A stretch of DNA of 64,000 bases from Haliotis cracherodii (Eukaryota): NCBI RefSeq assembly GCF_022045235.1, contig NW_027266268.1, positions 38,130,001-38,194,000 of the forward strand, in the 5' to 3' direction. Of the stretch, positions 10,990-20,581 are shown piece after piece (the first letter of the stretch is position 1; the number at the start of each line of letters is the position of its first letter). The notes under the pieces are model-generated. The model was not told where the DNA came from. It saw only the letters and a program-made list of their open reading frames with translations, and searched no databases. A program made the translations under genes and the position numbers.

Positions 10990-11258
10990 TTTTTATAGGA
11001 GAGCCACTGACACCCTACCTCCTGATTGGTTCCCCAGGCAGCGCCCCCGATTGGTTCGTTTCGGGGCCTGGTCTGCACCTCGGTTTTCCAAAACGGACCG
11101 ACCCCTGTGTTTCTTTTCCATAGGAAATGGATTTTACCATGGGAGAGAAAGCACAACCCCGGTTCGACCATTCAGAGTCCCGCATGACCCGAGCACGGTC
11201 TCTGATTGGTTGACAACCCAGGCTTCGGATTGGTTCGATTTCGATCCGGTTTTTTTTT
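10990..11258 (-). promoter_or_regulatory. Promoter cassette copy 1 (four CCAAT boxes + TATAAAA)
   Basis: Homologous to 14066-14308, 18684-18985 and 20268-20581; lies directly upstream of the zinc-knuckle ORF. Confidence 0.8.
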
Positions 11259-11465
11259 ATCGGGGTGTGCATTTCGATCCGGTTTTGTTTTTTTCATCCT
11301 ACAGACCACAGAACACGACTATGGGTTTTTAAAACAAAATTTAATCCCCTCGCTCACATGAACCAACACCACAAAACAAAAAGTCACAGGATGAGGGGGG
11401 CGTCCCTGTGAATTTTGTGAACACGGGGGTATGAACGTCTGTACACTTTGAAAAAAGAAACTTTG

Positions 11466-11978
11466 TCACTTGGGGTGAACAAGACACTCGACTCTTCTCT
11501 TCCGTGCTTCTTGGGACACCAAACGTCTGTATTTTTCGTTCACTTCTCCATCAGGACAAAACACACACAAGTATTCGCAGGGGACTTTGGCGTGCTTCAG
11601 ATGTTCTTTCCAGGGTTGGTCTGTGGCTTCCCATTGGCGGAGTGCCACACCGCAGCAATAACAGGTCACACAGTCACCTTGTCCTGGATAGAAATAGCCA
11701 GCCATGGCCATGTCATACGGGGTCTGGGTCATCTGTTTAGGCCACGTTTTAAAAGATCTCAGACGTTCTTGAAATGAATCATAGTGAGGATGAGAAGGAT
11801 GACACGGGGTGTAAGAAGGAAAAGGTCCCTCCAGAATGTCACTGAGTCGCCACGTGTCGTCCCTAAAGAGGGGACGTTTTCTCGCTTCTTGTTCTCTTGC
11901 CTTTTCAGACACCCACTCGGAATCGGTGACGACATCTCGGGAGGATGACATGACATTCATAGAACGTCTTTGCTCCAT
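11466..11978 (-). CDS. Single-BIR inhibitor-of-apoptosis protein (IAP-1, 170 aa)
   Basis: RLRSFKTWP...AMAGYFY...CYCC-X16-H-X7-C BIR signature; CATAAAA upstream (~12025-12031); ATTAAA downstream (~11340-11345). Confidence 0.9.
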   Translation of the reverse strand: MEQRRSMNVMSSSRDVVTDSEWVSEKAREQEARKRPLFRDDTWRLSDILEGPFPSYTPCHPSHPHYDSFQERLRSFKTWPKQMTQTPYDMAMAGYFYPGQGDCVTCYCCGVALRQWEATDQPWKEHLKHAKVPCEYLCVFCPDGEVNEKYRRLVSQEARKRRVECLVHPK

Positions 11979-12755
11979 GATGACGGTGACTTCACTGAAA
12001 GAAGGTCTGAGGGTTCGCCTGCTTTTATGAAACTCTCCACCCTACTCCCTTCCACGGAAGGTCATGACCTTAGCTTCCACCTCCTCCACCTCCTCCACCT
12101 CATCACGTGACGTCATCCTGTGTTTGGGTTGACGGACACACGGCATGATCCATGACATGATCCATGACATGATCCATGACATGATCCATGACATGACATG
12201 GTACACGGGGTGGGGGGTGTGGGGATCGATGCGTACTGGAATGACTGACACCAGGCAGCTGATCTTTCAAGCATGGCCTTTCTCTTTTATCTATTTTTAT
12301 TTTGATTTTACACTCGGGTGTGCACTGACATGACAGATGCACAGACAGACAGACAGACAGACGGACAGACAACGTAAACGACATCTCAACTCAACCTCTA
12401 CCCTCGGTTCGGCACTCTATTGGAGTTGAGATCAATCAAGACACAAAGAGTCAGTTCAATCAATCACTGTTTAATCATGAAAAAACCAATCACAACCAGA
12501 TACAATGGAAATACGAAAAGTCAATGGAGGAGGGAGTGCTTTGCATGTCCCTACAACAACCACAACAACAACAATAACGCGACAACGTTTTCCTCTTCCA
12601 TCTTCAAGCCCATAAGAGGTGGTCCTCCCTCAACCATGTGAGAGGTCCATCCGTTCAACACGTACAGTCTATGGCCTCCCTGAAACAGACATGACACATC
12701 ACTTGATCACGGTTGCAGCTTACGTGTTGACAAGTTCTTCGAGTGAAGAGGAGGA

Positions 12756-13851
12756 TCACCATAAGATGTGATCCTCAGCAGATGTGATAGGCATGTCATC
12801 ATGTGTCATTATGCGGTCATAGGTCAACATACTACAAGTACAGTCTATGAGCTCCAGACCACAGACATGACACATCACTTGCCCGCTGTTGCAACTGATG
12901 TATCTTAGCATGTTGTTGTGTCGGCAAATACGACATCCGCGTTGTAGGGGAGTGAGTTGAGCTTCTCCATAAGGATCCAGGTCAACGTTGTCATCAACAT
13001 CATCATCTTCATTATCGTCGCAAACCAGGGGCGTACCTGAGGAGTAGACATGAACATCTTCCGGGGATGCTGGTGACCAAGAAGCCTCAAGCAGGGGGAG
13101 CGTGTCCAGATCCATGGAAGGGAGAGTGGCCAGCTTGAGCGCTTCATGATCATCACGGTCACCCGTCGCCATCGTCACAGCAGGGGCATTCGGTGAATAG
13201 GTGGGCTCCCGAGGGGTTTGTTCCCACCACTGTTCTAGCACGGACTGGGCTGAACTGACATCAGGGGTCCTGTCAATCATAGGACAGAGTCCATTTATCA
13301 TAGGAATAGGTCATGAATATGAATCACATCAAGAATGACTGAGACAAAGAAGAGCAGGGTACTTACAGCTGTTCTTGAGGAGAGATCTTCAGAGATAATT
13401 TCTTCCGTGATCGTCTTTTTGCAGGCGTTGCAGGTTTCAAAAAGGATGTCCCCATCGTTTCGATGTCTGTTGTCGCTGCAGCCGTTGTTGCTGTTGCTGC
13501 TGTGGTGGTGGGGACTGGCGCTGTGGTGGTGGTGGTGGGTGTTGCTGCTGCTGTGGGGATCACAACGACTGTGGGCTTGCTTGTCTTTTTCTTCTGGATC
13601 TTCTTTATCGTCTTCTTCGATGTGCCTTTCTCGGGTTCAGTCAGCTTCCTCATCTTTGAACGTATCTGTTCGCACATCAGGTTGTCGCCCTTCGCACGTA
13701 ACTTGGCGTACGCGTCGTCGGTCTTCATCTTTAAACACAGCAAGTCGTACACTTCACCCCACAGTTCAGCAGTCATGTCACCGTTCCCATCTCCACTGCT
13801 TCCTTGGCCACTCATGTCGCTTCGTGTCTTGTCATTCAACCGTTTCGACAT
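12756..13851 (-). CDS. Spliced E1A-like ('oncoid') protein; exons 13851-13367 and 13269-12756
   Basis: 97-bp intron GTAAGT...TTGACAG (13366-13270) joins two ORFs in frame (phase 2). C-terminal LVCDD + acidic run + GCRIC..MCHVC zinc finger. ATTAAA at ~12470-12475. Confidence 0.7.
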
Positions 13852-14065
13852 GATGTTGTCCGGATGTTCTGTTCGTTGTTGTTGTTGTTGTTGTTTTTTC
13901 CAAGTCTTCACGGAGGTGTGTCAGCACTTGATGGTACTCTCTCCAAACACGTGTTTCTTCCAGATAAAACGCCAACAACCAACACAACGTGAGGAACATC
14001 AATCAGAGGGGGGCGATGTGGTTGCTTGGTCCGTTCAGTGAAAAGTGATGACCGGAGAGCATCGG

Positions 14066-14308
14066 GCGTATTAAAAGCCACGGTGGTCCTGCTTTCTGAT
14101 TGGCCCATTCCGGTGTCTGGTCTGAGTCTCCATTTTTCCAAACTGGACCGATCCTTGTGTTTCTTTTCCATAGGGTTAGGCTTGTAGCGTGAGAGAGAAA
14201 GCACAACCTCGGTTCGACCAATCAGAGCCCACCATGGCTCGAGCACGGCCTCTGATTGGTCGACAACCCAGGCTTCGGATTGGTCCGATTTCGATCCGTT
14301 TTTTTTTT
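14066..14308 (-). promoter_or_regulatory. Promoter cassette copy 2
   Basis: Same CCAAT-rich cassette with TTTTAATA at its 3' end; upstream of the E1A-like gene. Confidence 0.75.
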
Positions 14309-18985: not shown

Positions 18986-19000
18986 GTGATAAAATCAAGA

Positions 19001-19453
19001 ATGGCTGAAACAAAGAAGAGTGGTACGACGACGCGTGGCGAAGATGTGGGGATGGATAGTACAGATACTCGTGGATGTTGGAGTAAGAGTCATGCCGAGG
19101 AGGCGGTGTCACTGCTCAGTCAAACGCCATCGCACTATTATCTACGCTTTGAAAGAAGGCTCGCTTCGTTTGAGACGTGGCCCACGCAAATGTATCAGAC
19201 TGCTGAAGAGATGGCCCATGCGGGCTTTGTCTACACTCAGGGTGCCGATGGTGTGTGCTGTTTCCAATGTGGTGTGCGGCTGAGACAATGGGCACCCCAC
19301 GACAATCCTTGGGCGGCACATCACAAGTGGTCCCCAGACTGTGATTACCTCAAGCTAACCGGGCTGGTGAAACACCAGAAGCAACTACAACTACACTATC
19401 TCTGCGAAGAGAAACAGAGGTACACGAATGACGTAGCAGAGCCGGCTGCCTAG
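19001..19453 (+). CDS. Single-BIR inhibitor-of-apoptosis protein (IAP-2, 150 aa)
   Basis: RLASFETWP...AHAGFVY...CFQC-X16-H-X6-C BIR signature; paralogous to IAP-1. Confidence 0.9.
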   Translation: MAETKKSGTTTRGEDVGMDSTDTRGCWSKSHAEEAVSLLSQTPSHYYLRFERRLASFETWPTQMYQTAEEMAHAGFVYTQGADGVCCFQCGVRLRQWAPHDNPWAAHHKWSPDCDYLKLTGLVKHQKQLQLHYLCEEKQRYTNDVAEPAA

Positions 19454-19778
19454 GAGGGCGACGTTTCCCGTGTCCTGCGTTCCCGTTCAAGTTCCCGTTC
19501 CAGTTCCCCGTTCAAGTTCCCGTTCCAGTTCCCGTTCAAGTTCCCGTTTGTCTACTGCTGTTGTTGTGGATGGTTCAGTCTGTTTCCGCTTCTTGTTTCC
19601 TACAAGCTTTTCTTTTTTTTTTGGACCCCACAAGTGGTGTCACGTAGGGCACCCTGATGACATACCCAGATGGTATACCCAGATGACAGCAAGTACCCCT
19701 TCGACGATCCTTGTCTTGTCATAAGCTTGGACATGATGATTCTTCTTGGACAGCAGCAGAAAAGTTTTCTTCTTTCCC

Positions 19779-19804
19779 AAAACGGCCCTTTTCAGGGCCA
19801 CCCA
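19779..19804 (+). terminator. Histone-type 3' stem-loop followed by HDE-like AAAAGA
   Basis: AAAAC-GGCCCT-TTTC-AGGGCC-ACCCA-TCTCACCC-AAAAGAC; internal copy outside the TIRs, downstream of IAP-2. Confidence 0.85.
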
Positions 19805-20267
19805 TCTCACCCAAAAGACAACTTTCCTCCTTTGCTTTGCCAACCCCACCCCCAATTTGAAAACACACACACACACAGGGCACGACGTTTGCATGGCAAC
19901 ACACAAAGTACATGACGTTCACATCGCGACACGAAGTCCATGACGTGTGCAAACTTAACGTCACGTAGGTGTATCGATCTTTCTCTATTCATCTCAATAC
20001 GACACTACTCAATACACACACACACAGGACACCACGTTTTGCCTGACCACACGCTATTCTATGCATCGTCTGTTTGAAGACATACACACACACACATACC
20101 CACACACACACACGCACACATGACATTCCGATTGGCATGGGAGTGACACACACGTACATAGGCATTCCCACGTTCATGTCTACCTATGAAGGTCCACCTT
20201 CCTTTAGCATTCAGACGACCGTCGACCTCAAAAAAAATATCAAGGCTACCCAAGAAGAAAAAAAAAC

Positions 20268-20581
20268 GGATCGAAATCGGACCAATCCGAAGCCTGGGTT
20301 ATCGACCAATCAGAAGCGGCGCTCGGGCCATGGCGGGCTCTGATTGGCCGAACCGGGGTTGTGCTTTCTCTCCCATGGTAAAATCCATTTCCTATGGAAA
20401 AGAAACACAGGGGTCGGTCCGTTTTGGAAAACCGAGGTGCTGACCAGGCCCCGGAACGAACCAATCGGAGCTGCGGCCTGGCGAACCAACCAGGAGGGAG
20501 GATGTCAGTACCACTCCTATAAAACAACAGTGGATTCGAGTGGGTCAGTGTCACTTGTAAAATTGATTCGAAAAATCAAGA
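20268..20581 (+). promoter_or_regulatory. Promoter cassette copy 4
   Basis: CCAAT boxes and TATAAAA (~20518-20524) upstream of the ATG at 20582. Confidence 0.8.

Follow-up and report, generated by a model that had tools for sequence, protein, structure and literature searches.

A duplicated histone H3-like promoter cassette and histone-type 3′ ends in a Maverick-like element of the abalone Haliotis cracherodii

Overview

A 64,000-nucleotide stretch of the Haliotis cracherodii genome (NCBI RefSeq assembly GCF_022045235.1, contig NW_027266268.1, positions 38,130,001 to 38,194,000 of the forward strand; referred to below as the window and numbered from its first letter) contains a Maverick/Polinton-like mobile element in which one promoter-like cassette stands in four copies in front of different genes. 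With a probability that we put at roughly two in three, this arrangement arose when an H3-type RNA polymerase II promoter was acquired once by the element, duplicated inside it, and paired with a histone 3′ signal in three units. It is supported by the anatomy of the cassettes, by how the copies are related, by the canonical 3′ signal and by a resemblance to one H3 promoter.

Four copies of one promoter cassette

Self-BLAST of window positions 8001-23000 against the whole window recovered the four homologous cassettes described in the initial annotation (10990-11258 and 14066-14308 on the minus strand, 18684-18985 and 20268-20581 on the plus strand). Each of the six pairwise comparisons gives a match, with 76-90% identity across 207-342 nt (E 1e-31 to 4e-100), and no fifth copy is present in the window. 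The copies, with somewhat wider limits for the last two, are:

10990-11258, minus strand: cassette copy 1, with four CCAAT boxes, palindromic core and TATAAAA from 10997
14066-14308, minus strand: cassette copy 2, truncated past the third CCAAT, with the loop of the palindrome replaced
18678-19010, plus strand: cassette copy 3, with GGATCGAAA at both ends, pointing outward (18684; inverted at 18912-18924)
20258-20591, plus strand: cassette copy 4, with TATAAAA at 20518 and an initiator (Inr) at +29
20360-20410, no strand assigned: imperfect palindromic core of copy 4, with arms TTGTGCTTTCTC and GAAAAGAAACACA; the core is common to all four copies

The shared start motif, multiple CCAAT boxes and conserved core attributed to the cassettes are borne out: the 27-nt start motif (11247 and 14297, minus; 18684 and 20268, plus) and the 19-nt core CCTATGGAAAAGAAACACA each occur exactly four times in 64 kb, the core once per cassette, and 12 of the 34 CCAAT[CG][AG] sites in the window lie in the cassettes' 1,128 bp. 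Copy 4 has CCAAT at -236, -212 and -57 and CCAAC at -32 from its TATAAAA, as well as one reversed CCAAT. In copy 3 a 21-nt tandem duplication adds a CCAAT, a forward box in place of the reversed one, and CATAAAA at 18936 is followed by an Inr at +29. Copy 1 has Inr-like A residues at +26 and +30, and an extra GGATCGAAA upstream at 11280. Homology in copy 2 ends after the third CCAAT, and its only TATA-like sequence is a non-homologous TTTAATA about 220 nt before the ATG, with YYANWYY but no BBCABW about 30 nt downstream. A TATA-like box just upstream of the open reading frame (ORF), proposed for every copy, is therefore found in copies 1 and 4 (the only two with TATAAAA) and in copy 3, but not in copy 2. 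Copies 3 and 4 are homologous past the TATA, through the 5′ untranslated region (UTR), to about 8 nt beyond the start codon; the UTR of copy 1 differs from theirs.

All 18 columns of the forward CCAATC boxes are invariant, versus 108 of 175 other columns (block permutation p ~0.016), and copies 1, 3 and 4 have the initiator motif BBCABW, which matches 5.9% of window positions as background, 29-30 nt downstream of the TATA; copies 3 and 4, being homologous at the initiator, are counted once. On these two grounds, CCAAT conservation and TATA-to-Inr spacing, the earlier promoter reading is supported, and the cassette looks like an RNA polymerase II promoter. Spacing between the CCAAT boxes is 24-25 bp, and a G2/M-type arrangement, for which 32 bp is the characteristic spacing, was rejected.

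The earlier account did not mention that the core is palindromic. The arms are retained in copy 2 despite its replaced loop, and because the core as DNA folds well only in copy 3, a symmetric protein-binding site seems likelier than a hairpin. Baculovirus homologous regions are dispersed palindromes that act as enhancers and origins, and a comparable role for the cassette, with its place before ORFs secondary, would fit the persistence of the core in all four copies although the loop of copy 2 has been replaced, and the lengthening of the palindrome in copy 3, where both arms have changed (fold z -5.3 as DNA, -6.2 as RNA). It is nevertheless very improbable: folding of the core as DNA is poor in the other three copies (z -0.5 to -2.6), the 10-nt right half-site is no better conserved than a random block (p 0.15), every copy is oriented towards an ORF with TATA/Inr spacing, and protein-primed replication begins at DNA termini. 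The core has no match in the bacterial/archaeal genome collection that was searched. The reverse strand of the cassette folds better than shuffles (z -2.8 in copy 4 and -4.7 in copy 3; core z -1.7 to -6.2), but an antisense Pol III transcript or structured RNA ending at the T-run is unlikely: neither Rfam nor a tRNA search gave a hit, copy 2 is weak, and the T-run lies within a motif of histone promoters.

Similarity to a histone H3 promoter

Histone promoters for comparison came from a stem-loop pattern search of the bacterial/archaeal collection, which gave 26 loci (L001-L026) on 12 contigs. Seven of the 12 hold animal-type histone genes, presumably as host contamination; in L001 a histone cluster stands on one contig with genes of bacterial appearance, which points to contamination or a chimera. 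Pfam confirmed the H1 and H2A genes, while H3, H4 and H2B are what we take the genes to be from their N-termini. The four cassettes were compared with 13 histone and 3 non-histone upstream regions, the histone loci being those of such contigs and not Haliotis's own; the comparison excluded loci L008 and L025, repeated copies, and what lies upstream of H2A in L001, L021 and L024.

The H3 promoter of L001 matches all four cassettes (scores 45-55, z 8-10, reached by 0 of 300 shuffles), against a best score of 29 for 312 window tiles outside the element, and it ranks first among 379 locus tiles. The link to histone genes, previously suggested from clustered CCAAT and TATA, thus acquires a direct alignment. 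Neutralising the CCAAT pentamers leaves the match in place, the shuffles reaching the score numbering 0, 1, 4 and 24 of 500 for copies 4, 2, 3 and 1. It includes the GGATCGAAAT motif and spacer bases, and the back half of the cassette is collinear with the next part of the same promoter (26 of 33 columns). L001 H3, copy 1 and copy 4 agree in having CCAAY at -57 and -32 from the TATA. GGATYGAA with twin CCAAT boxes 24 bp apart is found in two of the three H3 promoters and in all four cassettes, and nowhere else in the window.

In the divergent H2A/H2B promoter of L014 the motif stands at both ends, pointing outward, 18 nt before each TATA. Copy 3 alone among the cassettes shares this layout, with TTCRATCC at -19 from the TATA and an outward copy at the other end. 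As the initial annotation had it, copy 3 sits between two divergent genes, one for a protein-primed DNA polymerase B (pPolB, ATG at 18602) and IAP-2 (ATG at 19001), and its far side is 82 nt from the pPolB start codon. The L014-like layout, with the far side facing that codon, suggests bidirectional use and makes copy 3 a candidate bidirectional promoter.

The right arm of the core contains AAACACA, presumably the vertebrate H1 box, a motif present in all four cassettes and in one of two H1 promoters. An origin from an H1 promoter, prompted by this motif, is not favoured: neither of the two H1 promoters aligns to the cassette.

Histone-type 3′ ends

The genes behind the cassettes and the associated 3′ signals are:

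10332-10931, minus strand: gene A, behind cassette 1; coding part intronless, 199-aa zinc-knuckle (CCHC) protein, Pfam PF00098
10158-10203, minus strand: histone 3′ stem-loop 1 with purine-rich element, 133 nt past the gene A stop; Rfam RF00032, 36.4 bits
12756-13851, minus strand: gene B, behind cassette 2; predicted 97-nt in-phase GT-AG intron 13366-13270; AATAAA at 12296-12301
19001-19453, plus strand: IAP-2; coding part intronless, 150-aa single-BIR protein, Pfam PF00653
19779-19824, plus strand: histone 3′ stem-loop 2 with purine-rich element at +14, 330 nt past the IAP-2 stop; RF00032
20582-20905, plus strand: gene D; coding part intronless, 107-aa Cys/His-rich protein of an unnamed small family
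20911-20956, plus strand: histone 3′ stem-loop 3 with purine-rich element at +14, 10 nt past the gene D stop; RF00032

The three RF00032 (Histone3) hits, at 35.6-36.8 bits versus a gathering threshold of 34, are the sole Rfam hits above gathering in the 64 kb. Each has the 6-bp stem, 4-nt loop and conserved flanks of the family, and the purine-rich downstream element, at +14, falls within the +10 to +15 of the compared histone loci; a chance stem-loop match in a cyanobacterium (L008) has no such element. The three units share 66-69 nt at 94%. The cassette and stem-loop had been read as a histone-like frame, and in three of the four units (cassettes 1, 3 and 4) an intronless ORF does end in a true histone 3′ signal, the canonical stem-loop plus purine-rich element. 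The frame is not universal, because copy 2 precedes gene B, a spliced AATAAA-type gene in which Rfam finds no stem-loop.

Cleavage of the gene A, IAP-2 and gene D mRNAs by SLBP/U7 is plausible from these signals. Their decay at the end of S phase is doubtful: a distance of 25-60 nt from stop to stem is called critical for regulated histone mRNA stability in the available text of bioRxiv 10.64898/2026.10.14.759114, none of the three units (133, 330 and 10 nt) lies in that range, and with stem-loops at such atypical distances end-of-S-phase decay may not operate.

Weighing the explanation

Several observations weigh against an H3-type origin or the use made of it. A strong match is seen in one of 13 histone promoters and one of three H3 promoters: L014 H3 reaches z 2.2-2.6 in three copies and L006 H3 up to z 2.2, L001 H4 matches copy 2 only (3 of 300 shuffles), and the remaining regions stay at z up to 2.2. 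The gene behind copy 2 is spliced and of poly(A) type. Bidirectionality of copy 3 is weakly supported: its reverse side lacks a TATA, and the Inr-like sites there have counterparts in the other three copies. Because stem-loops 1 and 3 both belong to a single homogenised sequence, the terminal inverted repeat (TIR), only two stem-loop placements are independent. The distances from stop to stem differ from the 21-47 nt of the compared histone genes, and these distances, together with cargo that seems stable between sister copies (see below), speak against a full histone-like co-regulation of the gene set.

Some of these points would be expected if the cassette were a generic strong CCAAT/TATA promoter duplicated in the element, its likeness to H3 a convergence towards shared host factors and the stem-loops mere compact 3′ cutters or passive TIR passengers, with no cell-cycle co-regulation. 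The atypical stem-loop distances, the working of copy 2 without a stem-loop and the 12 of 13 histone promoters that give no strong match all fit, as do reports, in the available portions of each paper, that CCAAT boxes are common in non-histone promoters (PMC10735318) and that histone promoter motifs turn over fast between species (PMC1794435). This alternative is rather unlikely: the H3 similarity survives masking of the CCAAT boxes and takes in the GGATCGAAAT motif and spacer bases. The histone gene class is favoured because promoter and 3′ end point to it independently.

In the preferred explanation, a replication-dependent histone H3-type promoter would have entered a Maverick-like element a single time and then been duplicated internally. 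The cassette reads as an H3 promoter (GGATCGAAA motif, CCAAT, CCAAT, CCAAC, TATA) whose middle CCAAT may have been duplicated around an insert of about 155 bp with the palindromic core. Transcription would be driven by NF-Y/TBP; the mRNAs of gene A, IAP-2 and gene D would most likely be cut by the host SLBP/U7 snRNP and carry no poly(A) tail; copy 3 probably drives pPolB too, in the opposite direction; and copy 2 would be an incomplete duplicate now serving a conventional gene of the spliced, poly(A) type. From general knowledge, the likely gain would be expression in proliferating or germline/embryonic cells, where deoxynucleoside triphosphates and replication factors are available, with IAP perhaps blocking the apoptosis that replicating linear DNA could provoke.

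The element and its genes

All four cassettes fall inside the element, whose remaining features are:

9572-21492, no strand assigned: Maverick/Polinton-like element, 11.9 kb; termini AGTAGT...ACTACT, TIRs and target-site duplication (TSD)
9566-9571 and 21493-21498: perfect 6-bp TSD AACGGG, flanking both element ends
9572-10203, plus strand: left TIR, with stem-loop 1 within its inner edge
20911-21492, minus strand: right TIR, with stem-loop 3 within its inner edge
11466-11978, minus strand: IAP-1, single BIR, with no cassette in front; ATTAAA at 11340-11345
14369-18602, minus strand: broken gene for pPolB, the protein-primed DNA polymerase B; divergent from cassette 3, with its start codon 82 nt away

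From left to right the order is TIR with stem-loop 1, gene A, cassette 1, IAP-1, gene B, cassette 2, pPolB, cassette 3, IAP-2, stem-loop 2, cassette 4, gene D, and stem-loop 3 with TIR. The TIRs, about 600 bp long, are identical between left and right at 571 of 579 ungapped positions; copies 1 and 4, by comparison, are identical at 231 of 257, and the idea that they form an inner part of the TIRs was rejected. The TIRs (9594-9885, 21218-21470) contain 39-bp and 18-bp tandem repeats, the left having one 39-bp unit more than the right, and in these repeats lie what we take to be YY1-like, ETS-like and E-box motifs.

Maverick ends of the type (AGT)2/(ACT)2 or (AG)3/(CT)3 and a 6-bp TSD are the criteria given in the available text of PMC8097293. 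The element has TIRs with (AGT)2/(ACT)2 ends, the perfect AACGGG duplication on both sides, and a protein-primed DNA polymerase B recognised through PF03175, although the gene is broken in the present copy. Pfam recognised pPolB in two, BIR in two and a zinc knuckle in one of 99 stop-to-stop frames of at least 70 aa, with two further hits below cut-off. None of the 99 matched an integrase, ATPase, protease or major or minor capsid protein; divergent capsids can escape Pfam, and little unassigned space is left. The element thus differs from an intact autonomous Maverick, which would have these genes, and is filed as a non-autonomous Maverick derivative.

The pPolB gene is interrupted by frame changes near 17697 and 16810 and in-frame stops near 17955 and 15458, while its ATG at 18602 corresponds to the start of H. 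cracherodii relatives of 1264-1291 aa. Its natural 441-aa frame is 86-98% identical to its five best matches, which come without exception from Haliotis rufescens or H. cracherodii and whose clusters total 34 members; from this identity and these cluster sizes, the element would appear to belong to a young multicopy non-autonomous family in abalone.

Gene A, IAP-2 and gene D, assessed on their coding ORFs, are single ORFs, and the first two match full-length homologs: gene A (with an alternative ATG at 10943) has five Haliotis homologs at 55-88% identity, and IAP-2 has 14 Haliotis matches, the best at 95%. Gene D has seven matches, five of them with the Cys/His pattern; the two without the Cys pattern (P0185, P0191) were left out of its alignment. 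Neither fold nor function emerged for gene D (Atlas below 0.9; best PDB profile E 0.045; model at predicted local distance difference test (pLDDT) 67; fold searches non-significant, at best E 0.07 and Z 3.3). Gene B has no family in Pfam, and its exon 2 no Atlas match. None of five window proteins (four genes, gene A from two starts) has an exact-sequence match in the protein collection.

A duplicated Cys-rich motif lies at the end of gene B (12658-12720 and 12834-12896, 79% DNA identity), the second copy past the stop of the exon-2 frame. The IAP-2 start MAETKKS (19001-19021) resembles the H1 start MAESKKK of L010, perhaps by chance. Upstream of IAP-1 (12104-12196) are an overlapping E-box/CRE (12104-12115) and a 12-bp tandem repeat. 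The two IAP genes appear to use different promoter and 3′-end types, and a shared expression frame for them was rejected, the DNA match between them being limited to the BIR-coding part.

Outside the element, a Tc1/mariner-type transposase ORF (45197-46036, minus strand; HTH_Tnp_Tc3_2 and DDE_3) and a 24-bp repeat in two inverted arrays about 1.4 kb apart (48595-49709, 51078-51608; possibly the ends of a foldback-type element) were noted. The flanks also hold several dispersed short repeat families and minisatellites at 7203-8094 (period 37), 23725-26055 (22), 26924-27358 (32) and 52586-54139 (20).

Sister copies and stability of the cargo

Accession order, which is only a proxy for gene position, gives some view of related elements in Haliotis. 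Of 28 IAP-2-like accessions, which represent 10 of the 14 clusters, seven are numbered directly next to one of the 31 pPolB accessions listed, and one of three gene A accessions (from two of the five matches) completes a consecutive run of gene A, polB and IAP-2. In three gene models among 184 proteins, the reading continues into parts of the frame where these would be expected: the cassette upstream of polB (P0005), the cassette after IAP-2 (P0161) and the stem-loop after gene A (P0183). Whether cargo differs between related elements while the cassette is kept was a check put forward in the initial annotation; these accessions and models point to a negative answer, and cargo appears stable between sister copies rather than swapped. 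The related proposal that cargo ORFs are placed into a frame survives in part: although not supported across sisters, it describes units 3 and 4, where the UTR/start-codon sequence and the 3′ blocks are shared and the ORFs between them are unrelated, so that within the element cargo has, in one sense, been exchanged. One H. rufescens gene model (P0154) joins antisense IAP-1 sequence (11799-11912) to IAP-2 (19112-19438), suggesting an internally deleted copy or a mis-spliced model.

These comparisons also bear on a caveat attached to the initial annotation, that the cassette might be a scattered host miniature inverted-repeat transposable element (MITE). Four jumps of such a MITE, or of another short repeat, into the element would suit the inverted ends of copy 3 (12 of 13 nt, about 240 bp apart) and the abundance of short repeats in the host region. 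However, the 52 kb outside the element contain no copy, where host repeat families have many; the inverted right end is present in one of four copies and missing from copies 1, 2 and 4; copies 3 and 4 remain homologous across the UTR and into the start codon; histone promoters have the motif of the "inverted end" at the same place; and sister elements have the cassette at the same positions. This is the least probable of the origins considered.

Relation to known systems

Like Mavericks/Polintons (proposed as adintoviruses), the abalone element has TIRs, (AGT)2...(ACT)2 ends, a 6-bp TSD and pPolB, and IAP homologs occur in adintoviruses (PMC8502044, available text). Unlike them it is 11.9 kb long, with no integrase, ATPase, protease or capsid detected, and the available portions of PMC8097293, PMC8502044 and bioRxiv 10.1101/2022.07.12.499685 do not mention repeated histone-type promoters or histone 3′ ends. 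Nematode Mavericks with cargo (wasp/wosp, krma) likewise have extra genes near the TIR, some with introns (bioRxiv 10.1101/2022.07.12.499685); in the part of that text available, cargo varies between elements and the word "promoter" is absent from the main text, whereas abalone cargo appears stable and shares a duplicated promoter. In the iridovirus IIV-6, as described in the accessible text of PMC5923455, DNA-virus mRNAs that lack poly(A) terminate in a 3′ hairpin, as would, judging from sequence, the abalone ones; the IIV-6 hairpins are 22-56 nt long with TAATG/CATTA and are proposed terminators, not an SLBP stem-loop with a U7-type element.

With replication-dependent histone genes the element shares, in three units, ORFs with an intronless coding part; it also shares the geometry of twin CCAAT and TATA, GGATYGAA, the 16-nt stem-loop and the purine-rich element at +14; it differs in its non-histone ORFs, the extra palindromic insert in the promoter, and stem-loops 10-330 nt, not 25-60 nt, from the stop. 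According to PMC2781718 (available text), histone mRNAs alone have this stem-loop, and nothing indicates that SLBP binds RNAs of other kinds. No published account of a Polinton/Maverick with a histone stem-loop or H3-type promoter was found by titles and abstract beginnings, a search that covered few subscription papers. The element is apparently an undescribed regulatory variant of a known element class, and its structure suggests that it plugs non-histone genes into a pathway thought reserved for histones.

In three of the 12 contigs with stem-loop loci, non-histone single ORFs end 19-25 nt before a canonical stem-loop plus purine-rich element:

L012:198-860, minus strand: MADF domain ORF, stem-loop downstream
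L022:152-451, minus strand: ORF without known family, stem-loop downstream
L026:201-788, minus strand: RING finger ORF, stem-loop downstream

The L026 contig, gene-dense and intronless, also encodes a 622-aa kinase and looks virus-like. These three further non-histone ORFs, on unrelated contigs and with canonical histone 3′ ends, hint that non-histone use of such ends is wider than this element. It is possible, with odds somewhat below even, that invertebrate virus-like DNA elements have captured the whole replication-dependent histone programme, both the H3-type promoter and the SLBP/U7 3′ end, and use it as a module. Non-histone, non-polyadenylated mRNAs would then form a class that escapes poly(A)-selected RNA-seq, and these three ORFs would be independent members of it.

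If the explanation is right, natural non-histone genes with a histone-type promoter and 3′ end would break the rule that the stem-loop belongs to histones alone. Their stop-to-stem distances of 10, 133 and 330 nt would amount to a natural experiment on that distance, and the element would reveal a way in which Maverick gene expression is timed to replication in the host. For abalone, the finding indicates that a set of genes annotated as host IAPs is carried by a mobile element, with consequences for counts of mollusc IAP families.

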